A DNA stretch of 30,875 nt, taken from a virus (lineage: Duplodnaviria > Heunggongvirae > Uroviricota > Caudoviricetes). The notes beneath the pieces are model-generated. The model was not told the DNA's origin, made no database searches, and saw only the letters and a program-made list of their open reading frames with translations. The stretch lies in IMG/VR virus record IMGVR_UViG_2667527965_000004. The stretch is one strand, 5' to 3'. The number at the start of each line of letters is the position of its first letter. The first letter of the stretch is position 1. The translations under genes were made by a program, and so were the position numbers. Positions 3,510 to 30,875 of this stretch are shown piece by piece.

Positions 3510-5784
3510 AGCCTCCGGGCGTTTTGTCCCTCCGTCAGCATTTGCCGCAGGCACCGGTAAGATGTTTACCGGTGCTTATGCATGGAACGCGCCACGCGAG
3601 GCTGTCGGGCGCGAAAGACCTCTTACACGTGATGAGATGCGTCAGGTGCAAGGTGTTTTATCCACGATTAACCGCCTGCCTTACTTTTTGCGCTCGCTGT
3701 TTACTTCACGCTATGACTACATCAGGCGCAATAAAAGCCCGGTGCACGGGTTTTATTTCCTCACATCCACTTTTCAGCGTCGTTTATGGCCGCGCATTGA
3801 GCGTGTGAATCAGCGCCATGAAATGAACACCGACGCGTCGATGCTGTTTCTGGCTGAGCGTGACCACTATGCGCGCCTGCCGGGAATGAATGACAAGGAG
3901 CTGAAAAAGTTTGCCGCCCGTATCTCATCGCAGCTTTTCATGATGTATGAGGAACTCAGCGATGCCTGGGTGGATGCGCATGGAGAAAAAGAATCGCTGT
4001 TTACGGATGAGGCGCAGGCTCACCTCTATGGTTATATTGCTGGCGCTGCACGTGCTTTCAATATTTCCCCTCTCTACTGGAAAAAATACCGTAAAGGGCA
4101 GATGACCACGAGGCAGGCATATTCTGCCATTGCCCGTCTGTTTAACGATGAGTGGTGGACTCATCAGCTTAAAGGCCAGCGTATGCGCTGGCATGAGGCG
4201 TTACTGATTGCTGTCGGGGAGGTCAATAAAGACCGTTCTCCTTATGCCAGTAAACATGCCATTCGTGATGTACGTGCACGCCGCCAGGCAAATCTGGAAT
4301 TTCTTAAATCGTGTGACCTTGAAAACAGGGAAACAGGCGAGCGCATCGACCTTATCAGTAAGGTGATGGGCAGTATTTCTAATCCTGAAATTCGCCGGAT
4401 GGAGCTGATGAACACCATTGCCGGTATTGAGCGTTACGCCGCCGCAGAGGGTGATGTGGGGATGTTTATCACGCTGACCGCGCCGTCAAAGTATCACCCG
4501 ACACGTCAGGTCAGAAAAGGCGAAAGTAAAACCGTCCAGCTAAATCACGGCTGGAACGATGAGGCATTTAATCCAAAGGATGCGCAGCGTTATCTCTGCC
4601 GTATCTGGAGCCTGATGCGCACGGCATTCAAGGATAATGATTTACAGGCCTACGGTTTGCGTGTCGTCGAGCCACACCACGACGGAACGCCGCACTGGCA
4701 TATGATGCTTTTTTGTAATCCACGCCAGCGTAACCAGATTATTGAAATCATGCGTCGCTACGCGCTCAAAGAGGATGGAGACGAAAGAGGAGCCGCGCGA
4801 AACCGTTTTCAGGCAAAACATCTTAACCGGGGCGGTGCTGCGGGGTATATCGCGAAATACATCTCAAAAAACATCGATGGCTATGCACTGGATGGTCAGC
4901 TCGATAACGATACCGGCAGGCCGCTGAAAGATACTGCTGCGGCTGTTACCGCATGGGCGTCAACGTGGCGCATTCCGCAATTTAAAACGGTTGGTCTGCC
5001 GACAATGGGGGCTTACCGTGAACTACGCAAATTGCCTCGCGGCGTCAGCATTGCTGATGAGTTTGACGAGCGCGTCGAGGCTGCACGCGCCGCTGCAGAC
5101 AGTGGTGATTTTGCGCTGTATATCAGCGCGCAGGGTGGGGCAAATGTTCCGCGCGATTGTCAGACTGTCAGGGTCGCCCGTAGCCCGTCGGATGACGTTA
5201 ACGAGTACGAGGAAGAGGTCGAGAGAGTGGTCGGCATTTACGCGCCGCATCTCGGCGCGCGTCATATTCATATCACCAGAACGACGGACTGGCGCATTGT
5301 GCCGAAAGTTCCGGTCGTTGAGCCTTTGACTTTAAAAAGCGGCATCGCCGCGCCTCGGAGTCCTGTCAATAACTGTGGAAAGCTCACCGGTGGTGATACT
5401 TCGTTACCGGCTCCCACACCTCCTGAACACGCCGCAGCAGTGCTAAATCTGGTTGATGACGGTGTTATCGAATGGAATGACCCGGAGGTCGTGAGGACGC
5501 TCAGGGGTGCATTAAAACACGGCCTGAAAACACCAAATCGTCAGCAAAGAAACGGAAGTCCGTTAAAACCACATGAAATAGCACCGTCGGCCAGACTGAC
5601 CCGGTCGGAACGATTGCAAATTACCCGTATCCGCGTTGACCTTGCTCAGAACGGTATCAGGCCGCAGCGATGGGAGCTTGAGGCGCTGGCGCGTGGCGCG
5701 ACCGTAAATTATGACGGGAAAAAATTCACGTATCCGGTCGCTGATGAGTGGCCGGGATTCTCAACAGTAATGGCGCGGACATAA
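3499..5784 (+). CDS. A: Replication initiation endonuclease A (rolling-circle HUH relaxase)
   Basis: 761 aa from ATG 3499 (equals P2 A length; track start 3457 is TTG); HUH-type PHWHMMLF and tyrosine pair YIAKYISK motifs. Confidence 0.9.
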   Translation: MAVKASGRFVPPSAFAAGTGKMFTGAYAWNAPREAVGRERPLTRDEMRQVQGVLSTINRLPYFLRSLFTSRYDYIRRNKSPVHGFYFLTSTFQRRLWPRIERVNQRHEMNTDASMLFLAERDHYARLPGMNDKELKKFAARISSQLFMMYEELSDAWVDAHGEKESLFTDEAQAHLYGYIAGAARAFNISPLYWKKYRKGQMTTRQAYSAIARLFNDEWWTHQLKGQRMRWHEALLIAVGEVNKDRSPYASKHAIRDVRARRQANLEFLKSCDLENRETGERIDLISKVMGSISNPEIRRMELMNTIAGIERYAAAEGDVGMFITLTAPSKYHPTRQVRKGESKTVQLNHGWNDEAFNPKDAQRYLCRIWSLMRTAFKDNDLQAYGLRVVEPHHDGTPHWHMMLFCNPRQRNQIIEIMRRYALKEDGDERGAARNRFQAKHLNRGGAAGYIAKYISKNIDGYALDGQLDNDTGRPLKDTAAAVTAWASTWRIPQFKTVGLPTMGAYRELRKLPRGVSIADEFDERVEAARAAADSGDFALYISAQGGANVPRDCQTVRVARSPSDDVNEYEEEVERVVGIYAPHLGARHIHITRTTDWRIVPKVPVVEPLTLKSGIAAPRSPVNNCGKLTGGDTSLPAPTPPEHAAAVLNLVDDGVIEWNDPEVVRTLRGALKHGLKTPNRQQRNGSPLKPHEIAPSARLTRSERLQITRIRVDLAQNGIRPQRWELEALARGATVNYDGKKFTYPVADEWPGFSTVMART

Positions 5785-6236
5785 TGACAAAGATTCACAA
5801 AGTAAAGCTGCACGCAAAATATTTCGACCTTGTGCTGGAAGGAAAGAAACGCGCAGAGTTTCGGAAAAATGACCGTAATTATGAGCGCGGAGACACGTTG
5901 ATTTTGCATGAATGGGGGCAGGGTGTGTATACGGGGCGAAAGGTTGAAGCCCGGATAACAGATGTTACTGACCTGTCAGACTGGCTGGAAGATTATGTCT
6001 TGCTAAGTATTGAGCTGCTTAATACAGGCGCATATGAGATTGTGAACTGGAAAGAACTTAGTGAGCGTGGTCTGGTATTCAGAATTAATCATGAAATTAT
6101 GCATCAGCTCGGCCTTGCTGTTATGTATGAACCAGAGACGGGGATGTCTGGCGGGGCAATGGTTGCCACGGATGGAGCATGGAACTATTCAGATGAACAG
6201 ATTGAGCGTGCAAAGCAAAACGGGTGGCTTGGATAA
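5784..6236 (+). CDS. ASCH/DUF3850-like (PUA-fold) domain protein with extra C-terminal region
   Basis: ATG 5784 overlaps A stop (TAATG); N-terminus KIHKVKLHAKYFDLVLEGKKRAEFRKNDRNYERGDTLILHEW fits the ASCH-like pattern; occupies P2 orf91 position but is longer. Confidence 0.6.
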   Translation: MTKIHKVKLHAKYFDLVLEGKKRAEFRKNDRNYERGDTLILHEWGQGVYTGRKVEARITDVTDLSDWLEDYVLLSIELLNTGAYEIVNWKELSERGLVFRINHEIMHQLGLAVMYEPETGMSGGAMVATDGAWNYSDEQIERAKQNGWLG

Positions 6237-6765: not shown

Positions 6766-7662
6766 ATGAATAAAAGTAAAGCAATCTCAAGAATAGAGAG
6801 AGTGTTGAGAAGATTAAAGGATGGGAGTTTCACTGATAGTGATATTGATGTTCTTTTTGTTACGGCCCGTGAGTTGCCGAGTGCGCCCAAGTGTATTTTT
6901 GAAATTGGGAGTTTTGTTGCCCATAATCATCGGAGAGATCAAGGCGAGATAAAGGATATCATGCTGAGGAATCATTTGTTATTAAGTTTAAAATTTGGAC
7001 GCGATAAGCATGCTGTTAAACCAGAGTTAAATGAATACCCGAAATACTTACCTACATTAATCAGACTGCAATTAAGAATGTTCAGTGATGAGTTTTTAAA
7101 GGAGAAGTTAAACTTAAAGGGGGGGCAGGTAATTACAGCGAGGAAGAAGCTTAATAACAAGAAATCGTATATTGTTAATGATGGTGTTTGTAAGTTAACA
7201 CCAGAAATTGGTTCCAATGAAGGGCGAATGATTAATGAAGCTTTGTCGTTACTCAATTGTTCTGACGCAATTAAGTTCGACTCTTTATTTAATGAGCTGA
7301 AAATATTGCTTCGGAAGGAGATTTCAGGGGTGGACTTGATGCCGCTTGATAATAACAGGAGAGCAATAGCAGGCATCTTACTGTGTTTGTTGAATAATAT
7401 TGATTTTTCTCTGATGCCTGAAGTCAAAGCAAAAACAGTCCTTAGTCTTAATGATGCAGATAAATCTGCAAATGTTTATGGTCAATATTATATAACACAT
7501 GAAAAAGAGCCATTCACCGACGTGGCTATCATGAGCCCAGTGTTTCAGTCGGGGTATGATGTTAGTGACCTTTTTGATGAGCATGTGACAAATGAAAATA
7601 TCGTAAATGGGGATGTCGAATTTAGTTTTGATTTGGGGAAAATAGTTGTGTCGAAATCATAG
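6766..7662 (+). CDS. AT-rich orphan protein of unknown function (candidate accessory or defence cargo)
   Basis: 298-aa ORF, visibly AT-rich with K/N/I/L-rich codon usage unlike flanking phage genes; purine-rich RBS (GGTTGAAAGAA) upstream; no Walker, HNH, NTase or RT motif found by eye. Confidence 0.7.
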   Translation: MNKSKAISRIERVLRRLKDGSFTDSDIDVLFVTARELPSAPKCIFEIGSFVAHNHRRDQGEIKDIMLRNHLLLSLKFGRDKHAVKPELNEYPKYLPTLIRLQLRMFSDEFLKEKLNLKGGQVITARKKLNNKKSYIVNDGVCKLTPEIGSNEGRMINEALSLLNCSDAIKFDSLFNELKILLRKEISGVDLMPLDNNRRAIAGILLCLLNNIDFSLMPEVKAKTVLSLNDADKSANVYGQYYITHEKEPFTDVAIMSPVFQSGYDVSDLFDEHVTNENIVNGDVEFSFDLGKIVVSKS

Positions 7663-18244: not shown

Positions 18245-19153
18245 ATGCCGATTATCGACCTGAACCAGCTACCTGCACCGGATGTGGTCGAGGAGCTGGA
18301 CTTTGAAACCATTCTTGCCGAACGCAAGGCGACACTGATTTCCCTTTACCCGGAAGACCAGCAGGAGGCGGTCGCCCGTACCCTGACGCTGGAATCCGAG
18401 CCTCTCGTCAAACTGCTGGAGGAAAACGCTTATCGTGAGCTTATCTGGCGTCAGCGTGTGAATGAGGCCGCACGGGCGGTGATGCTGGCCTGTGCCGCGG
18501 GTAATGACCTTGATGTGATTGGTGCCAATTACAACACCACGCGTCTGATTATCACCCCGGCAGATGATTCGACTATCCCGCCGACACCGGCAGTGATGGA
18601 ATCTGACACCGATTATCGTCTGCGTATTCAGCAGGCGTTTGAAGGTTTAAGCGTCGCCGGGTCAGTGGGAGCCTATCAGTATCATGGTCGCAGTGCCGAC
18701 GGGCGTGTCGCGGATATCTCTGTCACCAGTCCGTCTCCGGCCTGTGTCACTATCTCTGTGCTGTCTCGCGAAAATAACGGTATCGCATCCGAAGACCTGC
18801 TGGCGGTGGTGCGCAACGCCCTTAATGGTGAGGACGTCAGGCCGGTGGCCGACCGCGTGACCGTGCAGTCTGCCGCCATCGTTGAATACCAGATAAACGC
18901 CACGCTTTACCTTTACCCTGGTCCTGAAAGCGAACCCATCCGCGCTGCTGCCGTGAAAAAACTGGAAGCGTACATCACGGCACAGCACCGGCTGGGGCGC
19001 GACATCCGTCTGTCTGCCATTTATGCCGCTTTGCATGTGGAAGGCGTGCAGCGTGTCGAGCTGGCCGCACCACTGGCCGACATTGTGCTCAACAGTACGC
19101 AGGCGTCTTTCTGCACCGAATACAGCGTCGTGACCGGAGGCTCGGATGAGTGA
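18245..19153 (+). CDS. J: Baseplate protein J
   Basis: 302 aa, equals P2 J. Confidence 0.85.
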   Translation: MPIIDLNQLPAPDVVEELDFETILAERKATLISLYPEDQQEAVARTLTLESEPLVKLLEENAYRELIWRQRVNEAARAVMLACAAGNDLDVIGANYNTTRLIITPADDSTIPPTPAVMESDTDYRLRIQQAFEGLSVAGSVGAYQYHGRSADGRVADISVTSPSPACVTISVLSRENNGIASEDLLAVVRNALNGEDVRPVADRVTVQSAAIVEYQINATLYLYPGPESEPIRAAAVKKLEAYITAQHRLGRDIRLSAIYAALHVEGVQRVELAAPLADIVLNSTQASFCTEYSVVTGGSDE

Positions 19154-19757
19154 TTCGCGCCTGCTGCCGACCGGCTCATCACCGCTTGAAGTTGCCGCCG
19201 CAAAAGCCTGTGCGGAAATTGAAAAAACGCCGGTCAGTATTCGTGAGCTGTGGAACCCGGACACCTGCCCGGCAAATCTGCTGCCGTGGCTGGCGTGGTC
19301 ATTTTCGGTTGACCGCTGGGATGATAAGTGGCCGGAAGCGACAAAACGCGCTGTTATCCGCGATGCGTATTTCATTCACTGCCATAAGGGCACTATAGGC
19401 GCAATCCGGCGTGTGGTGGAGCCGCTCGGCTATCTGATTGAGGTAAGGGAGTGGTGGCAGCTCAACGAGGAGCCGGGGACGTTCCGTATCGTTGTTGGCG
19501 TGCTTGAGCAGGGTATTACCGAAGAAATGTATCAGGAGCTGGAGCGCCTCGTTGCTGATGCAAAACCGGCAAGCCGCCATCTGACGGGACTGGCTATCAG
19601 TTTAAGTACAAACGGCAACATTTTTGCCGGTGCGGGATGCTATCACGGCGACGCCCTGACGGTTTATCCCTACACCCCGGAGGCCATTATTGTCGGAGGG
19701 GATTATTTCCCGGCCTCGGCCATTCATTTAATTGATAACCTGAGAGTAAACGCATGA
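19146..19757 (+). CDS. I: Baseplate protein I
   Basis: 203-aa ORF in P2 gene I position, overlapping J stop and H start; true start not resolved. Confidence 0.75.
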   Translation: MSDSRLLPTGSSPLEVAAAKACAEIEKTPVSIRELWNPDTCPANLLPWLAWSFSVDRWDDKWPEATKRAVIRDAYFIHCHKGTIGAIRRVVEPLGYLIEVREWWQLNEEPGTFRIVVGVLEQGITEEMYQELERLVADAKPASRHLTGLAISLSTNGNIFAGAGCYHGDALTVYPYTPEAIIVGGDYFPASAIHLIDNLRVNA

Positions 19758-20938
19758 CAGTGAAATACTACGCCATTCTGACTAATCAGGGCGCAGCACG
19801 GCTGGCTAACGCGACGATGCTCGGCAGTAAGCTGAATCTGACGCAAATGGCCGTTGGTGATGCGAATGGTGTCTTGCCGACACCAGACCCGGCACAGACA
19901 AAACTGATTAACCAGAAACGCATCGCGCCGCTGAATCTTCTGAGTATTGACCCGAACAACCAGAGCCAGATTATTGCGGAGCAAATCATCCCTGAGAACG
20001 AGGGCGGATTCTGGATCCGTGAGATTGGGCTTTATGATGATGAAGGCGTACTCATTGCGGTGGCGAACTGCCCGGAAACGTACAAACCGCAGTTGCAGGA
20101 AGGCAGTGGTCGTACCCAGACTATCCGCATGATTCTGGTTGTCACGAATACCGAAGCCATCACGCTGAAAATCGACCCGTCGGTGGTACTGGCGACCCGT
20201 AAATACGTGGATGATAAAGTCCTGGAATTAAAGCTGTATGTGGATGACCAGATGAGAAACCACATTGCCGCACAGGATCCTCATACCCAGTATGCACAGA
20301 AACATAATCCGACATTTACCGGAGAACCAAAAGCGCCGACGCCTGCCGCAGGAAATAACACCACGCGGATTGCGACCACTGCGTTTGTACAGGCCGCTAT
20401 TACCGCTCTGATTAACGGTGCCCCTGACACGCTGGACACACTGAAAGAAATTGCCGCAGCTATCAACAATGACCCGAAATTCAGTACCACCATTAACAAT
20501 GCGCTGTCAGGTAAGCAGCCACTGGATGAGACGCTGACTCATTTGAGTGGAAAGGATGTTGCTGGTCTTCTCGCATACCTTGGTTTAGGAGAAGCGGCGA
20601 AAAGGGATGTGGGCACAGGAGATAATCAGATACCGGATATGGGAGCATTCGCTTCTGGTTCGGGATGGTTCAGGCTACCAGGTGGATATATTGTTCAGTT
20701 TGGCACTTTTTCAGGAAACACGACCCGCTTTATCAGTGGACACTTCCCTATACCATTCCCTAATCAGCCGATGGTTTCAGTCAGTGTTATGTCTGATGCC
20801 GTTCAGTCAGACCCGTCGAATCCTGCCCCGCAGGTTTTGTCTGTAAATTTTGAACATATCAGTAATTCAGCGTGGCGTGTGGCAACCAGTGATATCTCAC
20901 AGCAATACAGATTCAGTTATATTTCGATAGGACGGTAG
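19754..20938 (+). CDS. H: Tail fibre protein H (constant N-terminal part plus the currently expressed variable C-terminal cassette)
   Basis: 394 aa, shorter than I recall P2 H to be; crossover site sits in-frame at codons for LGLGE (20568..20593). Confidence 0.85.
   Translation: MTVKYYAILTNQGAARLANATMLGSKLNLTQMAVGDANGVLPTPDPAQTKLINQKRIAPLNLLSIDPNNQSQIIAEQIIPENEGGFWIREIGLYDDEGVLIAVANCPETYKPQLQEGSGRTQTIRMILVVTNTEAITLKIDPSVVLATRKYVDDKVLELKLYVDDQMRNHIAAQDPHTQYAQKHNPTFTGEPKAPTPAAGNNTTRIATTAFVQAAITALINGAPDTLDTLKEIAAAINNDPKFSTTINNALSGKQPLDETLTHLSGKDVAGLLAYLGLGEAAKRDVGTGDNQIPDMGAFASGSGWFRLPGGYIVQFGTFSGNTTRFISGHFPIPFPNQPMVSVSVMSDAVQSDPSNPAPQVLSVNFEHISNSAWRVATSDISQQYRFSYISIGR
20568..20593. repeat. Left gix/hix-like inversion crossover site (26 bp) inside H
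   Basis: TTCTCGCATACC-TT-GGTTTAGGAGAA; reverse complement matches the right site at 20 of 26 positions (11 of 12 in the inner half-site) with matching AA/TT core. Confidence 0.65.
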
Positions 20939-20940
20939 AA

Positions 20941-21381
20941 ATGCAGAAATATATTTTCAGTGCCGATAAAAATGCGTTTTTCCCTGTGGAGCTTAAAATC
21001 GCTTATCAGGAATCCGGCGAATGGCCCGGTGATGGAATCGAAATTGACGACACTGTTGCCGCCGAATTTATGAAGGAAGCACCAGAAGGAAAATACAGAG
21101 GTGTCATCGACGGAATGCCTGCATGGATTGATATTCCACCGCCAACTCATGAGGAACAAATTGCCGCAGCCGAACTGGAAAAGCAGCAATTGATTAATCA
21201 GGTCAACGAATACATAAACAGTAAGCAATGGCCTGGTAAAGCGGCGATTGGTCGCCTGAAAGGTGGGGAACTGGCGCAATATAATTTGTGGCTGGATTAT
21301 CTGGACGCACTGGAACTGGTCGATACTTCCGGTGCGCCAGATATTGAATGGCCTACGCCTCCGGCAGTTCAGGCCAGATGA
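20941..21381 (+). CDS. G: Tail fibre assembly chaperone (current orientation)
   Basis: 146 aa directly after H; C-terminal motif IEWPTPPA shared with the convergent copy. Confidence 0.8.
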   Translation: MQKYIFSADKNAFFPVELKIAYQESGEWPGDGIEIDDTVAAEFMKEAPEGKYRGVIDGMPAWIDIPPPTHEEQIAAAELEKQQLINQVNEYINSKQWPGKAAIGRLKGGELAQYNLWLDYLDALELVDTSGAPDIEWPTPPAVQAR

Positions 21382-21955
21382 CGTCCGGCGCTGTGCTGGT
21401 ATCTGTTGCCGTCACCGCGTCAATGTAATCCAGCACGGCGTTAAGTCGGGTTGTTTCTGCCTGCGTCAGTTTCCGTCCGGCCTGTAATTTCAGCTGAATC
21501 AGACTAATGGAAGCCATTGCTGCATCAATCAGTGACTGGCGCTGTGCTTCTGCTGCGTCTACTGCGGCACTATGCTGTGCCTCAGTATCCGTCACCCATT
21601 TCTCACCATCCCATTTATCATATGGCGTTAACGGGGCGATAGTGGTTGTATTTTCAGGGTAATCACCCGGAGCTGTGATTTCTTTCGATTCTCCTGTTTC
21701 GGTGCTATAGATGATTTCACCGCGATGGTCTGGCACATATTCCCATGAGTTAAAATCTGCAGAACGGCAGATTGCATAACCAGCTTTATGTGTAACTGGT
21801 GCATCTAAACAAGAACATGCCGGGATACCGACGCCAACCGCAAGATATTCAGTTGATGTGGAAATATATTCCCGCGTTTCACCATCATAATTATAAATGG
21901 TAATGTCTCCCGCTTTTATGGCAATGAGTTCGTTATTTAATACGGCTTTATTCAT
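21353..21955 (-). CDS. Alternative tail fibre assembly chaperone (inverted orientation)
   Basis: 200 aa on minus strand converging on G; C-terminal motif VIWPELPEA. Confidence 0.8.
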   Translation of the reverse strand: MNKAVLNNELIAIKAGDITIYNYDGETREYISTSTEYLAVGVGIPACSCLDAPVTHKAGYAICRSADFNSWEYVPDHRGEIIYSTETGESKEITAPGDYPENTTTIAPLTPYDKWDGEKWVTDTEAQHSAAVDAAEAQRQSLIDAAMASISLIQLKLQAGRKLTQAETTRLNAVLDYIDAVTATDTSTAPDVIWPELPEA

Positions 21956-22455
21956 CAGGCAGCCCTCACGATATAATTAAAGGCAATGTTACGAGGTCGG
22001 TTTTCGTTTGCAGTTGGAACAACTCTGGAAGCATCGAATGTTACTTGCTTTGCATAACCACCTTTAATTGAATCAGATGAAGCATCTCCGATGACGCTGG
22101 TTGTAAAAACGCCAGAATCAGAAGGGTAGGTATTAAACCTGACATCCACTAATGCACCAATTATATTTCGAATGGCATCTCCCTGTGACGAAAGCAAGCT
22201 ACGGTTAGTATCTATTCCTCTTCCGTCATCCCAGCCACGAATGAACTCACCACGTAAATCAGGCAATTTATTTGTCGGGTAAGCCTTTGCCAGTTCCGGG
22301 TATTCTTCAGCAGAAAAAGCCGCACCGTTGCATTTCAGCCAGCCTGTTGGCGGAGTGGCTGAAGGCCACGGAACAGGCACCCCAACAGGTAATGCAGAGC
22401 CTTCTCCCAAACCAACGTTTATGAAAATGCAGAAATAACGAGCAAATGGCATCAT
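21955..22455 (-). CDS. Alternative tail fibre C-terminal cassette (silent until inversion; ORF read-through upstream of 22402 is not a real N-terminus)
   Basis: Minus-strand ORF containing GLGEGSALPVGVPVPWP... (Mu S/P1-type fibre tip); the crossover repeat is in frame with the H repeat. Confidence 0.75.
   Translation of the reverse strand: MMPFARYFCIFINVGLGEGSALPVGVPVPWPSATPPTGWLKCNGAAFSAEEYPELAKAYPTNKLPDLRGEFIRGWDDGRGIDTNRSLLSSQGDAIRNIIGALVDVRFNTYPSDSGVFTTSVIGDASSDSIKGGYAKQVTFDASRVVPTANENRPRNIAFNYIVRAA
22402..22427. repeat. Right gix/hix-like inversion crossover site (26 bp)
   Basis: TTCTCCCAAACC-AA-CGTTTATGAAAA; resembles the Gin/Hin site pattern (TTC...AAACC NN GGTTT...AA); 55 bp upstream of the invertase start. 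Confidence 0.65.
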
Positions 22456-22481
22456 TCCTGCTTTTGTCAGGGAGAGCTACC

Positions 22482-23075
22482 ATGCTTATTGGCTATGTAC
22501 GCGTGTCAACAAATGACCAGAACACCGATTTGCAACGTAATGCACTGAACTGCGCGGGATGTGAGCGGATTTTTGAGGATAAAATCAGCGGCACGAAGTC
22601 CGACAGGCCGGGACTGAAAAAACTGCTCAGAACATTATCAGCAGGTGACACTCTGGTAGTCTGGAAGCTGGACAGGCTGGGGCATAGTATGCGGCATCTG
22701 GTCATTCTGGTTGAGGAACTGCGCGAACGCGGTGTTAATTTTCGCAGCCTGACGGATGCCATTGATACCAGCACGCCGATGGGGCGTTTTTTCTTTCATG
22801 TGATGGGGGCCCTGGCTGAAATGGAACGAGAACTCATTGTCGAGCGGACTCGGGCCGGGCTGGAAGCGGCCAGAGCCAAAGGTCGTATTGGTGGCAGACG
22901 TCCTAAACTCACCACGAGTGAGTGGGAGCAGGCCGGGCGTTTGCTGGCTGCAGGGGAGTCACGTCAACGCGTGGCACTGATTTTTGATATTGGTCTGTCC
23001 ACGCTCTATAAAAAATTTCCCTCATCAGCGACAAAGAATAAATTGTGTCATCCCTTAGCCAACCGGGACAAATAG
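22482..23075 (+). CDS. Serine DNA invertase (Hin/Gin/Cin/Pin family)
   Basis: 197 aa from ATG 22482 (MLIGYVRVSTNDQ... with catalytic-serine motif, C-terminal HTH); directly flanks the invertible segment. Confidence 0.9.
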   Translation: MLIGYVRVSTNDQNTDLQRNALNCAGCERIFEDKISGTKSDRPGLKKLLRTLSAGDTLVVWKLDRLGHSMRHLVILVEELRERGVNFRSLTDAIDTSTPMGRFFFHVMGALAEMERELIVERTRAGLEAARAKGRIGGRRPKLTTSEWEQAGRLLAAGESRQRVALIFDIGLSTLYKKFPSSATKNKLCHPLANRDK

Positions 23076-23134
23076 CCTGACATCTCCGGCACAACTGAAA
23101 ATATCACTCACCCATTAACCACGGAGTTAAACGG

Positions 23135-24325
23135 ATGAGTGACTATCATCACGGCGTGCAGGTGCTGGAGATTAACGACGGCACCCGCGTCATTTCCACC
23201 GTATCAACTGCCATTGTCGGCATGGTCTGCACGGCCAGCGATGCGGATGCGGAAACCTTCCCCCTCAATAAACCGGTGCTGATTACCAATGTGCAGAGTG
23301 CAATTGCAAAGGCCGGTAAAAAAGGCACGCTGGCGGCGTCGTTACAGGCCATCGCTGACCAGTCAAAACCGGTCACCGTTGTCGTACGTGTGGAAGACGG
23401 CACCGGCGACGACGAAGAAACGAAACTCGCGCAGACCGTTTCCAATATCATCGGCACCACCGACGAAAACGGTCAGTACACCGGACTGAAAGCCCTGCTG
23501 GCGGCGGAGTCGGTAACCGGTGTTAAACCGCGTATTCTCGGCGTGCCGGGACTGGACACCAAAGAGGTGGCTGTTGCACTGGCATCAGTCTGTCAGAAGC
23601 TGCGCGCTTTCGGGTATATCAGCGCATGGGGCTGTAAAACCATTTCCGAGGTGAAAGCCTACCGCCAGAATTTCAGCCAGCGTGAGCTGATGGTCATCTG
23701 GCCGGATTTCCTCGCATGGGATACGGTCACGAGTACCACCGCCACCGCGTATGCCACCGCCCGTGCGCTGGGACTGCGTGCCAAAATCGACCAGGAGCAG
23801 GGCTGGCATAAAACGCTGTCCAACGTTGGGGTGAACGGTGTTACCGGCATCAGCGCCTCTGTATTCTGGGATTTGCAGGAGTCCGGCACCGATGCTGACC
23901 TGCTTAACGAGTCAGGCGTCACAACGCTGATTCGCCGTGACGGTTTCCGCTTCTGGGGTAACCGTACCTGCTCTGATGACCCGCTGTTCCTCTTTGAAAA
24001 CTACACCCGCACCGCGCAGGTGCTGGCCGACACGATGGCTGAGGCGCACATGTGGGCGGTGGACAAGCCCATCACCGCAACGCTGATTCGCGACATCGTT
24101 GACGGCATCAATGCCAAATTCCGTGAGCTGAAAACAAACGGCTATATCGTGGATGCGACCTGCTGGTTCAGCGAAGAATCCAACGATGCGGAAACCCTCA
24201 AGGCCGGAAAACTGTATATCGACTACGACTATACCCCGGTGCCTCCTCTCGAAAACCTGACCCTGCGCCAGCGTATTACCGATAAATACCTGGCAAATCT
24301 GGTCACCTCGGTTAACAGCAATTAA
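23135..24325 (+). CDS. FI: Tail sheath protein
   Basis: 396 aa, equals P2 FI. Confidence 0.9.
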   Translation: MSDYHHGVQVLEINDGTRVISTVSTAIVGMVCTASDADAETFPLNKPVLITNVQSAIAKAGKKGTLAASLQAIADQSKPVTVVVRVEDGTGDDEETKLAQTVSNIIGTTDENGQYTGLKALLAAESVTGVKPRILGVPGLDTKEVAVALASVCQKLRAFGYISAWGCKTISEVKAYRQNFSQRELMVIWPDFLAWDTVTSTTATAYATARALGLRAKIDQEQGWHKTLSNVGVNGVTGISASVFWDLQESGTDADLLNESGVTTLIRRDGFRFWGNRTCSDDPLFLFENYTRTAQVLADTMAEAHMWAVDKPITATLIRDIVDGINAKFRELKTNGYIVDATCWFSEESNDAETLKAGKLYIDYDYTPVPPLENLTLRQRITDKYLANLVTSVNSN

Positions 24326-24337
24326 GGAGCCTGACCG

Positions 24338-24856
24338 ATGGCAATGCCGCGCAAACTCAAGTTAATGAACGTCTTTCTGAACGGCTACAGCTATCAGGGC
24401 GTTGCAAAGTCCGTCACGCTGCCAAAACTGACCCGTAAGCTCGAAAACTATCGCGGTGCGGGGATGAACGGCAGCGCACCGGTAGACCTCGGCCTTGATG
24501 ACGATGCGCTTTCAATGGAGTGGTCGCTCGGTGGCTTCCCGGATTCGGTTATCTGGGAGCTTTACGCCGCAACCGGTGTGGATGCCGTGCCGATTCGTTT
24601 TGCAGGCTCTTACCAGCGCGACGATACCGGCGAAACGGTGGCCGTCGAAGTGGTCATGCGTGGACGTCAGAAAGAAATCGACACCGGCGAGGGTAAACAG
24701 GGAGAAGACACCGAGTCGAAAATCTCCGTGGTCTGCACCTATTTCCGGCTGACGATGGACGGTAAGGAGCTGGTCGAAATCGACACCATCAACATGATTG
24801 AGAAGGTGAACGGCGTCGACCGGCTGGAGCAACACCGCCGAAATATCGGCCTGTGA
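24338..24856 (+). CDS. FII: Tail tube protein
   Basis: 172 aa, equals P2 FII. Confidence 0.9.
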   Translation: MAMPRKLKLMNVFLNGYSYQGVAKSVTLPKLTRKLENYRGAGMNGSAPVDLGLDDDALSMEWSLGGFPDSVIWELYAATGVDAVPIRFAGSYQRDDTGETVAVEVVMRGRQKEIDTGEGKQGEDTESKISVVCTYFRLTMDGKELVEIDTINMIEKVNGVDRLEQHRRNIGL

Positions 24857-24912
24857 TTTTCATCCGGTCAGCCTGGCTGACCGGTTAACCCTGATTCAGA
24901 AGTGAGAAAACC

Positions 24913-25188
24913 ATGAACAAAGAAAATGTGATTACCCTGGACAATCCGGTCAAGCGTGGTGAGCAGGTTATCGAACAGGTCACGCTGATGAAGCCCAATG
25001 CCGGGACGCTGCGCGGTGTCAGTCTGGCTGCGGTCGCAAACTCCGAAGTCGATGCACTGATTAAGGTGCTGCCGCGCATGACGGCACCGATGCTGACCGA
25101 GCAGGAAGTCGCCGCGCTGGAACTGCCTGACCTTGTGGCGCTGGCCGGTAAGGTGGTCGGTTTTTTGTCGCCGAACTCGGTGCAGTAA
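24913..25188 (+). CDS. E: Tail assembly chaperone E
   Basis: 91 aa; slippery T6G near the 3' end. Confidence 0.8.
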   Translation: MNKENVITLDNPVKRGEQVIEQVTLMKPNAGTLRGVSLAAVANSEVDALIKVLPRMTAPMLTEQEVAALELPDLVALAGKVVGFLSPNSVQ

Positions 25189-25340
25189 CGTTCCCGAAAA
25201 ATCTCTCGGTCGATGACCTGATGGCGGATGTGGCAGTGATATTTCACTGGCCGCCATCAGAACTGTATCCCATGAGCCTGACCGAACTCATCACATGGCG
25301 CGAAAAGGCGCTCCGGCGAAGCGGAAACACGAATGAGTAA
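24913..25340 (+). CDS. E': E+E' fusion product via programmed -1 ribosomal frameshift
   Basis: Slippery heptamer TTTTTTG at 25161..25167; the -1 frame is open from there to TAA at 25338..25340 (translated by hand: VAELGAVTFPKNLSVDDLMADVAVIFHWPPSELYPMSLTELITWREKALRRSGNTNE), overlapping T start. Confidence 0.7.
25161..25167 (+). other. -1 frameshift slippery site (T6G)
   Basis: Read directly; same arrangement as the tail chaperone frameshift of P2 and lambda. Confidence 0.7.
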
Positions 25341-27780
25341 CAATGTAAAATTACAGGTATTGCTCAGGGCTGTTGACCAGGCATCCCGCCCGTTTAAATC
25401 CATCCGTACAGCGAGCAAGTCGCTGTCGGGGGATATCCGGGAAACACAAAAATCACTGCGCGAGCTGAACGGTCAGGCATCCCGTATTGAGGGATTTCGC
25501 AAGACCAGTGCACAGCTCGCCGTGACTGGTCATGCACTTGAAAAGGCACGGCAGGAGGCCGAAGCCCTTGCCACACAGTTTAAAAATACCGAACGTCCGA
25601 CCCGTGCTCAGGCGAAAGTGCTGGAATCAGCAAAGCGTGCGGCGGAGGACTTACAGGCGAAATATAACCGCCTGACGGATTCCGTTAAACGCCAGCAGCG
25701 GGAGCTGGCCGCTGTGGGAATTAATACCCGCAATCTTGCACATGATGAGCAGGGACTGAAAAACCGTATCAGTGAAACCACCGCACAGCTTAACCGTCAG
25801 CGCGACGCGCTGGCGCGTGTCAGTGCGCAACAGGCAAAACTTAACGCAGTCAAACAGCGTTATCAGGCCGGAAAGGAACTGGCCGGAAATATGGCCTCAG
25901 TAGGCGCTGCCGGTGTGGGGATTGCGGCGGCGGGAACGATGGCCGGAGTTAAGTTGCTGATGCCCGGTTATGAGTTTGCGCAGAAAAACTCAGAGTTGCA
26001 GGCTGTGCTCGGTGTGGCAAAAGACTCCGCCGAAATGGCTGCACTACGCAAGCAGGCGCGCCAGCTCGGCGACAACACCGCCGCCTCAGCGGATGATGCG
26101 GCCGGTGCGCAGATTATCATTGCGAAAGCGGGTGGAGATGCTGCGGCTATTCAGGCGGCAACGCCGGTCACGCTGAATATGGCACTGGCGAATCAGCGGT
26201 CGATGGAAGAAAACGCGCAACTGTTGCTGGGGACTAAAGCATCTTTTCAACTGTCAAATGATGATGTCAGCCATGTGGGCGATGTGTTGTCGGCAACGAT
26301 GAATAAGTCGGCGGCTGATTTTCAGGGACTTAGTGATGCACTGACTTATCTTGGCCCGGTCGCAAGAACGGCAGGTGTAAGTCTTGAGCAGGCAGCGGCC
26401 ATGACAGGTGTGCTGCATGACAATAACATCAGGGGGTCAATGGCGGGTACGGGTAGCAGTGCCGTTGTCACCCGATTACAGGCACCGACTGGAAAAGCAT
26501 GGGATGCACTCAAAGAGCTTGGCGTTAAAACCTCGGACAAAAAGGGAAATATGCGTCCGTTGTTCACCATTCTGAAAGAGATTCAGGCCAGCTTTGATAA
26601 ACACAAGCTGGGAACGTCTCAGAAGGGGGAATACCTTAAAACCATTTTTGGTGAGGAAGCCCTGAAATCAGCGAACGTTTTACTGGCAGCGGCTGCAAGC
26701 GGAAAGCTGGATAAGCTGACCGCCACGCTGAAAGCCTCGGACGGTAAAACGGAAGAGCTGGTTAAAATCATGCAGGATAACCTCGGCGGTGACTTTAAGG
26801 AGTTTCAGTCCGCTTATGAGGCGGTGGGGACAGACCTGTTTGACCAGCAGGAAGGCGCACTGCGTAAGCTCACGCAGACGGCCACAAAGTATGTGTTAAA
26901 ACTCGACGGCTGGATCCAGAAAAACAAATCACTGGCATCAACCATCGGCCTCATTGTCGGTGGCGCGCTGGCGCTTATTGGCATCATCGGTGCAATTGGT
27001 CTTGTAGCCTGGCCGGTTATCACCGGCATTAATGCCATCATCGCGGCAGCAGGCGCAATGGGGGCAATCTTCACGACGGTTGGCAGTGCTGTTATGACGG
27101 CCATCGGGGCGATTAGCTGGCCGGTTGTGGCCGTGGTGGCCGCCATTGTCGCCGGGGCGTTGCTTATCCGTAAATACTGGGAGCCTGTCAGCGCATTCTT
27201 TGGCGGTGTGGTGGAAGGGCTGAAAGCGGCATTTGCGCCGGTGGGGGAACTGTTCACGCCACTTAAACCGGTTTTTGACTGGCTGGGTGAAAAGTTACAG
27301 GCCGCGTGGCAGTGGTTTAAAAACCTGATTGCCCCGGTCAAAGCCACTCAGGACACCCTGAACCGTTGCCGTGACACGGGGGTCATGTTCGGGCAGGCAC
27401 TGGCTGACGCGCTGATGCTGCCGCTTAATGCGTTCAACAAACTGCGCAGTGGTATTGACTGGGTACTGGAAAAACTCGGTGTTATCAACAAAGAGTCAGA
27501 CACACTTGACCAGACCGCCGCCAGAACTCAAGCCGCCACGTATGGCAGCGGTGGTTATATTCCGGCGACCAGCTCTTATGCAGGCTATCAGGCTTATCAG
27601 CCGGTCACGGCACCGGCTGGCCGCTCTTATGTGGACCAGAGTAAAAACGAATATCACATCAGCCTGACGGGTGGCACTGCGCCGGGGACACAGCTTGACC
27701 GCCAGTTACAGGATGCGCTCGAAAAATACGAGCGGGATAAACGTGCGCGCGCTCGTGCCAGCATGATGCATGACGGTTAA
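25333..27780 (+). CDS. T: Tail tape measure protein
   Basis: 815 aa, equals P2 T; coiled-coil N-terminus and glycine/alanine-rich hydrophobic middle. Confidence 0.9.
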   Translation: MSNNVKLQVLLRAVDQASRPFKSIRTASKSLSGDIRETQKSLRELNGQASRIEGFRKTSAQLAVTGHALEKARQEAEALATQFKNTERPTRAQAKVLESAKRAAEDLQAKYNRLTDSVKRQQRELAAVGINTRNLAHDEQGLKNRISETTAQLNRQRDALARVSAQQAKLNAVKQRYQAGKELAGNMASVGAAGVGIAAAGTMAGVKLLMPGYEFAQKNSELQAVLGVAKDSAEMAALRKQARQLGDNTAASADDAAGAQIIIAKAGGDAAAIQAATPVTLNMALANQRSMEENAQLLLGTKASFQLSNDDVSHVGDVLSATMNKSAADFQGLSDALTYLGPVARTAGVSLEQAAAMTGVLHDNNIRGSMAGTGSSAVVTRLQAPTGKAWDALKELGVKTSDKKGNMRPLFTILKEIQASFDKHKLGTSQKGEYLKTIFGEEALKSANVLLAAAASGKLDKLTATLKASDGKTEELVKIMQDNLGGDFKEFQSAYEAVGTDLFDQQEGALRKLTQTATKYVLKLDGWIQKNKSLASTIGLIVGGALALIGIIGAIGLVAWPVITGINAIIAAAGAMGAIFTTVGSAVMTAIGAISWPVVAVVAAIVAGALLIRKYWEPVSAFFGGVVEGLKAAFAPVGELFTPLKPVFDWLGEKLQAAWQWFKNLIAPVKATQDTLNRCRDTGVMFGQALADALMLPLNAFNKLRSGIDWVLEKLGVINKESDTLDQTAARTQAATYGSGGYIPATSSYAGYQAYQPVTAPAGRSYVDQSKNEYHISLTGGTAPGTQLDRQLQDALEKYERDKRARARASMMHDG

Positions 27781-29437: not shown

Positions 29438-29518
29438 TGTTTTTATTTTATCTGTTTGTTTTATAAGGATAAATTAACTAAAATGGCACCATCAATAAAA
29501 CCGGAAGAGGTGCTCGCG

Positions 29519-29737
29519 ATGTTTCATTGTCCTTTATGCCAGCATGCCGCACATGCGCGTACAAGTCGCTATATCACTGACACGACAAAAGAGCGTTATC
29601 ACCAGTGCCAGAACGTGAATTGCAGCGCCACGTTCATCACTTATGAGTCGGTACAGCGATACATCGTGAAGCCGGGAGAAGTCCACGCCGTAAGACCGCA
29701 CCCGTTGCCGTCAGGGCAGCAAATTATGTGGATGTGA
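29519..29737 (+). CDS. ogr: Late gene transcriptional activator Ogr (C4 zinc finger)
   Basis: 72 aa from ATG 29519 (MFHCPLCQHAAHARTSRYITDTTKERYHQCQNVNCSATF...); cysteines CPLC/CQNVNC; track ORF from 29456 is an upstream extension. Confidence 0.9.
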   Translation: MFHCPLCQHAAHARTSRYITDTTKERYHQCQNVNCSATFITYESVQRYIVKPGEVHAVRPHPLPSGQQIMWM

Positions 29738-29747
29738 TCACAAAAAT

Positions 29748-29775
29748 AGCCCCCCAGTTGAGGGGCTTTATTTAT
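29748..29775 (+). terminator. Rho-independent terminator after ogr
   Basis: AGCCCC-loop-GGGGCT hairpin followed by TTTATTTAT. Confidence 0.6.
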
Positions 29776-29866
29776 GGTCGATGTGGACGCTATGTGGACA
29801 GTGCTTGATATAAATCCATTTATATCATCAGGTTAGGTGCTTTTTTGTGACACCATCCCTGTCTTC

Positions 29867-29892
29867 CCCCACATGATGTGGGGTTTTTTTTA
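29867..29892 (+). terminator. Strong rho-independent terminator, probably host-derived (possibly the 3' end of the host gene upstream of fieF)
   Basis: CCCCAC-ATGAT-GTGGGG hairpin followed by T8; lies between prophage end and fieF. Confidence 0.55.
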
Positions 29893-29972
29893 TCCTCAAT
29901 TTGCCTGCTGCTTAATGCATTGCAGATGATTTGCTTCCGTTATACTAGCGTCAGTTGATAGCGGGAGTATTT

Positions 29973-30875
29973 ATGAATCAATCTTATGGACGGCTGGTCA
30001 GTCGGGCGGCGATTGCTGCGACGGCGATGGCTTCGTTGCTATTGCTGATTAAAATTTTTGCATGGTGGTATACCGGGTCGGTGAGTATTCTCGCCGCGCT
30101 GGTGGATTCGCTGGTGGATATCGGCGCGTCGTTGACGAATTTACTGGTGGTGCGATATTCCCTGCAACCTGCCGACGATAATCACTCGTTTGGTCACGGT
30201 AAAGCAGAGTCCCTCGCGGCGCTGGCGCAAAGTATGTTTATCTCCGGTTCGGCACTATTCCTGTTTTTGACGGGTATTCAACATCTGATATCTCCAACAC
30301 CGATGACAGATCCAGGCGTCGGGGTTATCGTGACAATTGTGGCGCTAATTTGTACGATTATCCTTGTCTCGTTTCAGCGTTGGGTGGTGCGCCGGACGCA
30401 AAGCCAGGCGGTGCGGGCTGATATGCTACATTACCAGTCTGATGTTATGATGAACGGCGCAATTCTGCTGGCGCTGGGGTTGTCCTGGTACGGCTGGCAT
30501 CGCGCCGATGCTCTGTTTGCATTGGGAATCGGCATCTATATTTTATATAGCGCGTTACGCATGGGATATGAGGCGGTACAGTCATTACTGGATCGCGCAT
30601 TGCCTGATGAGGAACGGCAAGAAATTATTGATATCGTGACTTCCTGGCCGGGTGTTAGCGGCGCTCACGATCTTCGCACGCGGCAGTCAGGGCCGACCCG
30701 CTTTATTCAGATTCATTTGGAAATGGAAGACTCTCTGCCTTTGGTTCAGGCACATATGGTGGCGGATCAGGTAGAGCAGGCTATTTTACGGCGTTTTCCG
30801 GGATCGGATGTAATTATCCATCAGGACCCCTGTTCCGTCGTACCCAGGGAGGGTAAACGGTCTATGCTTTCATAA
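29973..30875 (+). CDS. fieF: Cation diffusion facilitator family Fe(II)/Zn(II) efflux transporter FieF (YiiP)
   Basis: 300 aa from ATG 29973 ([25 protein letters not shown]...), multiple TM helices, [10 protein letters not shown] motif; recognised as enterobacterial FieF. Confidence 0.9.

Follow-up and report, generated by a model that had tools for sequence, protein, structure and literature searches.

A tail-fibre segment found in both orientations points to a Pin/Gin-family inversion switch in a P2-like prophage of Escherichia coli

Can the tail fibre of a P2-like Escherichia coli prophage exchange its tip when the DNA that encodes it is turned over? The question is raised by a locus in a 30,875-nt stretch of viral DNA (IMG/VR record IMGVR_UViG_2667527965_000004; "the window" below means this whole stretch, at its full length), in which the fibre gene H contains a 26-bp site whose inverted counterpart lies beside a gene for a serine DNA invertase. 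An earlier note on this DNA had proposed a Mu/P1-style invertible tail-fibre segment on a P2 backbone, a host-range switch that P2 itself lacks. The explanation that we favour, with a probability of about 0.9, is that the locus, in a P2-like prophage of E. coli, is a site-specific inversion switch of the Pin/Gin family that acts on the tail fibre.

Both sites have the 12-2-12 form of an invertase crossover site. The left site lies inside H, at positions 20568 to 20593 (TTCTCGCATACC TT GGTTTAGGAGAA, encoding ...Y-L-G-L-G-E), and the right site lies at 22402 to 22427 (in reverse complement, TTTTCATAAACG TT GGTTTGGGAGAA), with 1.83 kb between them. When the two were compared in inverted orientation, 20 of the 26 positions were identical, including 11 of the 12 in the inner halves, and the central dinucleotide was the same at both, TT (AA at the right site when read on the plus strand). 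Each site encodes G-L-G-E in the fibre-gene frame. A scan of the whole window for a degenerate version of the 12-2-12 invertase site, tolerating at most 3 mismatches, returned two matches, which are these two sites; shuffled sequences gave an expectation of 0.01, and 0 of 100 shuffles equalled the observed count. Because only these two sites were found in the window at that threshold, with no third, we rejected a shufflon-like system of multiple inversion, of the sort known from Min of p15B.

Natural copies of the element exist in both orientations. We looked up the exact invertase protein in public assemblies and compared the contigs so found with the window over their overlap (18482 to 27075). 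Four of them (L011, of 8,594 nt, L012, L013 and L015) have the orientation of the window with 0 mismatches, and three (L010, of 8,594 nt and on chromosome OZ038818.1, L014 and L016) match, again with 0 mismatches, the window flipped in silico. Since the outer halves of the two sites differ up to site position 12 and the inner halves differ from position 20, the flipped copies place the crossover within the 7-nt interval TTGGTTT (20580 to 20586), which includes the central TT. A second pair of prophages, in strains E-93 and BS74R-D of E. coli, show 100% identity to each other across 9.4 kb except for an exact inversion bounded by the sites; both are ~97.6% identical to the 3.3-kb stretch of the window used as the query (19754 to 23100). 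Among 5,426 complete E. coli genomes, 34 were colinear with the window and 25 with the flipped query, where colinear means over at least 80% of the query. The public record thus holds not one orientation only but identical copies both ways, with the breakpoint inside the two sites.

Indirect support comes from draft assemblies. In the representatives of six other species (L021, L022, L023, L026, L027 and L036; Yokenella, two Citrobacter and Photorhabdus are among them), contigs stop exactly inside the invertase-proximal crossover site (within nt 1 to 25 of each locus; e.g., AAACCAACGTTT...), as expected if the sequenced cultures held both orientations; short-read assemblies tend to break at such sites.

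As a separate observation, E. coli MS 198-1 has a related module that is window-oriented on the chromosome (NZ_CP146687.1) and flipped on a second record of 66.8 kb (NZ_CP146689.1). Plasmid records of 210 to 216 kb also carry related P2-like modules.

What would be exchanged is visible in the order of the genes, which runs from P2 genes J and I through H, a plus-strand chaperone gene, a minus-strand chaperone gene, a minus-strand tip segment and the right site to the invertase gene and the sheath gene FI. In the orientation found, H (19754 to 20938, plus strand) encodes 394 amino acids (aa), with a Pfam Phage_tail_fib N-terminal domain (1.5e-62), a Gp53-like_C domain (5.2e-08) and matches to PHROG tail-fibre families. 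Its constant part (about 19754 to 20581, plus strand) ends at the left site, and the remainder, 20582 to 20938 on the same strand, is a variable tip, tip A, with the Gp53-like C-terminal domain. The 146-aa tail-fibre assembly chaperone of tip A follows (20941 to 21381, plus strand; Pfam Caudo_TAP, 5.2e-33; 56% identity to TfaP of e14 by blastp). The opposite strand, which homology predicts to be silent, carries a second tip segment, tip B (21955 to 22413, minus strand; Pfam Collar, 1.2e-15; 61% identity to StfE of e14), and its 200-aa chaperone (21353 to 21955, minus strand; Pfam Caudo_TAP, 1.7e-32; 93% identity to TfaE of e14 by blastp). The tip B segment has no start codon of its own, the ATG chosen by the open reading frame (ORF) finder at 22455 falling outside the invertible segment, and the genome annotation reports one truncated "phage tail protein" on this strand. 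The convergent chaperone genes share 29 nt where their 3′ ends meet (21353 to 21381), and tfaP and tfaE of e14 have the same overlap (L018, positions 4518 to 4546).

When we flipped the segment in silico at the central TT, H remained intact, now with 428 aa, and the 200-aa chaperone gene stood directly after it. The flipped public contigs L010 and L014 are annotated with just such a 428-aa H protein with a Collar domain. The earlier note had described two inverted 26-bp sites with nearly identical inner halves and complementary centres, set in frame at a GLGE block, and a minus-strand tip and chaperone cassette that would replace the tip and chaperone of H on inversion. This description stands: the coordinates agree and the flip yields an intact gene. 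Its expectation that related elements would share the similarity of the crossover sites is borne out, the sites being common to elements in E. coli, phage pro483, e14 and other genera. The left site recurs at 7 related loci of E. coli and phages, and e14 has a close variant of it.

An exact 13-nt direct repeat, AAATGCAGAAATA, occurs at 20939 to 20951, where the plus-strand chaperone gene begins, and at 22425 to 22437, just outside the right site. We considered it as the relic of a former cassette junction and rejected this; by our estimate ~0.3 such pairs are expected per 6 kb, and the sequence that holds the right copy is also present in e14. The repeat is probably due to chance.

The gene next to the right site (22482 to 23075, plus strand) encodes a 197-aa serine DNA invertase (WP_021549703.1), whose ATG lies 67 nt from the centre of that site. 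Its matches are to Pfam Resolvase (8.2e-51) and HTH_7 (1e-12), to Gin in the PDB (3uj3, 1.9e-94) and to "DNA invertase" in PHROG, and it combines an N-terminal resolvase catalytic domain with a C-terminal helix-turn-helix domain, as do Gin, Hin, Cin and Pin. Identity is 87% with PinE, about 84% with Fin and 80% with Gin. The C terminus is 13 residues longer than that of PinE; the last codons and the stop codon (23038 to 23075) fall within a homologue of the pF activator site of P2, which suggests that the additional residues arise where the reading frame runs across the module junction into the P2 backbone.

A putative equivalent of the recombinational (Fis) enhancer lies near the 5′ end of this gene, within the coding sequence. 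In the P1 record, nt 19 to 90 of cin are annotated as the Cin enhancer, and positions 22500 to 22571 of the window (plus strand) align with it without gaps at 56 of 72 positions. Within this region lie two 15-mers of the form G-N13-C (22503 to 22517 and 22552 to 22566), 95.5 and 144.5 bp from the centre of the nearest site; the offsets in Mu are identical, and the 15-mers stand 49 bp apart, compared with the 47 bp stated for hin. Among 23 invertase genes, synonymous codon identity was 0.58 over codons 7 to 30 and 0.40 over codons 31 to 180, values in which coding and 5′-end constraints are not fully separable. The synonymous conservation of the stretch ranks 4 of 156 sliding windows and peaks at both of its ends. 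These features fit a Fis enhancer and are not proof of one. One synonymous difference, at position 22556, falls in the putative distal Fis site, with G in the window and A in the other five invertase genes of the alignment (GCGCGGGATG versus GCGCAGGATG or GTGCAGGATG).

On the strength of this homology, the switch would be expected to work as follows. Dimers of the small serine invertase would bind both 26-bp sites and assemble, with the Fis-bound enhancer in the 5′ end of the enzyme's own gene, into an invertasome. Both sites would be cut at the central TT, and the strands would be rotated through 180 degrees and rejoined, so that the 1.83-kb segment is turned over. H, transcribed from the upstream late operon, has a constant part that ends at the left site. 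One orientation would give H with tip A (Gp53-like C domain) followed by the 146-aa chaperone, and the other would give H with tip B (Collar domain, StfE-like) followed by the 200-aa TfaE-like chaperone. Since the orientation would set which of the two tips is made, a lysogen population would release phage with two receptor specificities, and the predicted change in host range would follow from that.

Several observations weigh against a working switch of this kind. The essential set of Tn3 resolvase comprises Y6, R8, S10, D36, R68 and R71, and five of these six are present in the invertase (Y5, R7, S9, D33 and R65); the equivalent of R71 in the Tn3 and γδ resolvases is His68, encoded by CAT (22683 to 22685), where eight relatives, Gin and PinE have Arg (CGT or CGA). 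In Tn3 resolvase, R71 is among the six residues whose mutation abolished recombination, with cleavage reduced about 1000-fold (PMC2794168). In addition, a promoter and terminator scan of 20400 to 23300 found no promoter-like match ahead of the invertase gene, and its other matches were near the shuffle background. The element's own invertase may be weak or dead, and, given His at a conserved active-site Arg, the enzyme that flips the segment here may not be the element's own. It could then be that the switch is real and the resident enzyme is crippled by Arg68His, with inversion left entirely to a Pin-family enzyme supplied in trans by a prophage co-resident in the cell, such as e14, Rac, Qin or another P2-like one; a cell lacking that helper would keep the fibre in its present orientation. 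The His68 allele, a single G-to-A change (CGT to CAT), is rare: His stands at this position in 2 of 132 invertase-family sequences, and the exact His68 57-mer was found at 0 of 813 homologous places in the 724 complete E. coli genomes that have a homologous 57-mer. Help in trans has a precedent in PinQ of Qin, which inverts the P segment of e14 (PMC12529663), and PinE should recognise the right site here, since that site is identical to the one in e14. However, all of the 0-mismatch copies, in both orientations and over up to 8.6 kb, have His68; flipping therefore continued after the mutation arose, and an active enzyme explains this equally well. Moreover, the R71K and R71A mutants of Tn3 resolvase were "not inert," and histidine was absent from the substitutions tried (PMC2794168). 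The alternative is that this invertase subfamily, contrary to the resolvase data, tolerates His at the position of Tn3 R71 and that His68 leaves enough activity. We regard a disabled invertase with flipping in trans as a tentative proposal, one to be taken seriously and yet somewhat worse than an even bet. If it is true, phage host-range switching would depend on cross-talk between prophages. The His68 element, seen in both orientations, could offer a natural experiment on whether prophage invertases complement one another in trans.

A different role for the same inversion would be to serve mainly the host, with one orientation giving rise to a protein, derived from the fibre, that hides a receptor on the cell surface and keeps out superinfecting phage; StfE2 of e14 is reported to act in this way. 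The tip and chaperone of the silent cassette resemble StfE and TfaE (61% and 93% identity), and inversion of the e14 P segment by PinQ is reported to block T2 adsorption (PMC12529663), and yet we consider this role improbable here. The module sits in a prophage with uninterrupted genes for integrase, repressor, Cox, A, portal and ogr and uninterrupted ORFs for the tail and baseplate proteins examined, H has the full N-terminal domain for baseplate attachment, and nothing at the locus favours expression in the lysogen. P2 late genes are expressed only on induction. It might also be argued that there is no switch, the sites being a chance or coding-driven inverted repeat (a GLGE motif in two fibre genes) and the differences in orientation products of general recombination or assembly error. 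Both sites do lie in coding sequence for a common peptide motif, and the repeat is short. Against this, the outer halves fit the 12-2-12 pattern too, although the right outer half is noncoding; 0.01 matches are expected by chance; the invertase gene stands 67 nt away, as in Mu; and the breakpoints fall exactly in the sites in seven independent records. An identity of 7 to 14 bp is too short for RecA-type recombination. Contradicted by the copies in both orientations, by the E-93/BS74R-D inversion and by the statistics of the site scan, this explanation is so unlikely that we set it aside and return to the Pin/Gin-family switch.

The backbone around the module follows the P2 order, as checked for part of the genes: int, C, cox and A; portal gene Q and the head region; V, W, J, I and H; FI, FII, E, T, U and D; and ogr. 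Pfam matches to an integrase, a helix-turn-helix repressor, Cox, GPA, the portal, Baseplate_J, Tail_P2_I, the fibre, the sheath and Ogr_Delta agree with this layout, and the genes for integrase, repressor, Cox, replication protein A, portal and ogr and all of the tail and baseplate genes examined are uninterrupted ORFs matching Pfam families. The host element is thus a P2-like prophage of E. coli that is apparently complete. The right junction of the module with this backbone lies in the region of the P2 late promoter pF, which comprises the activator site and the FI leader (23038 to 23134, plus strand); positions 23055 to 23134 are 97.5% identical to P2 17572 to 17651.

The window spans almost the whole prophage, with the integrase gene at its left end (1 to 1011). 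At its right end (29456 to 30875), ogr is followed by a cation-efflux gene (Cation_efflux and ZT_dimer domains) that looks like host DNA. Two cargo ORFs (5748 to 6236 and 6766 to 7662) lie between replication gene A and portal gene Q, where P2 has its old/tin hotspot. Their products are a DUF3850/ASCH protein and a 298-aa protein that belongs to phrog_29586 and has no Pfam match. They are possible accessory or defence genes, and PADLOC returned 0 matches for these cargo ORFs of the A/Q hotspot. No transfer RNA genes were found.

Switches of this kind on a P2 backbone are already known, and this very element is already present in public records in both orientations. Goldberg et al. described inversion in two P2-like prophages of enteropathogenic E. 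coli (EPEC) E2348/69 by whole-genome sequencing and polymerase chain reaction, one of them with three sites (PMC4272514); Zaworski et al. described inversion of the tail-fibre gene of Fels-2 adjoining fin (PMC7953296); and a 2024 preprint reported that the P2 hotspot often holds a DNA invertase, with inversion of the adjacent genes. PMC2669165 contains nothing on invertible P2-like segments. A close homologue of the invertase occurs in 87 phage records, including S164, "P2" from O157:H43, Cartapus, SEN8 and Fels-2. Among species representatives, a P2-type H N terminus upstream of the invertase, or a sheath gene 80 to 160 nt downstream of it, recurs in Citrobacter, Kluyvera, Pantoea, Pectobacterium and others. 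Invertible fibre segments are textbook bet-hedging, a means for temperate phages (Mu and P1 among them) to broaden their host range, and there is no new principle here; the finding confirms the switch as a common mobile module of the tail-fibre hotspot in the P2-like prophages of E. coli and its relatives.

Comparison with P2 itself shows the same morphogenetic gene order and the pF region noted above (97.5% identity), but P2 has a single H tip with chaperone G, followed by fun(Z). The statement that P2 lacks the switch is correct, since its locus has fun(Z) and neither an invertase gene nor a crossover site. The same backbone, with the module between H/G and the sheath gene FI, is found in the P2-like phages and prophages pro483, S164, "P2" of O157:H43 T22, Fels-2 (with its invertase Fin) and those of EPEC E2348/69. 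Their closest member among phage records, the Peduovirus pro483, shares both the layout and the sites and has a gene annotated as a DNA invertase. The invertases of pro483 and S164 are 96 to 97% identical to the one here, and that of Fels-2 is about 85% identical. Unlike these shared parts, the cassettes vary among the elements (77 to 95% coverage), and one of the EPEC prophages has three sites and four arrangements, whereas the element here has two sites and two arrangements.

Of the classical systems, the G segment of Mu shares the order S-U-U′-S′-gin, the 67-nt spacing between site and invertase start (gixR to gin) and the 26-bp 12-2-12 sites; the site sequences here are identical at 17 to 18 of 26 positions to gixL. 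The enhancer of Mu and P1 is placed in the 5′ part of the invertase gene, as is the putative one here. However, these phages have another backbone, their segments are longer (3 kb in Mu and 4.2 kb in P1, compared with 1.8 kb here), their tips and chaperones are unrelated or only distantly related to those of this element, and cin of P1 is transcribed toward the segment. The P segment of e14 in E. coli K-12 has the same order of fibre gene, chaperone gene, inverted chaperone gene, inverted tip and invertase gene, and its pinE-proximal 26-bp site is identical to the right site here. It differs in that e14, a lambdoid element in decay, has a truncated fibre gene, whereas here there is a complete P2-type tail operon and an H gene with a full-length N terminus; in addition, tip A is unrelated to StfP, and PinE has Arg where His68 stands here. 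The label "Mu/P1-style on a P2 backbone" was therefore right about the P2 backbone and about the presence of all structural elements of the Gin/Cin/Pin type, and less apt about the closest relative, which is Pin of e14 (87% identity to PinE, compared with 80% to Gin). Judged by sequence, the nearest classical relative of the switch is the e14 P segment with Pin, and Mu and P1 are more distant.

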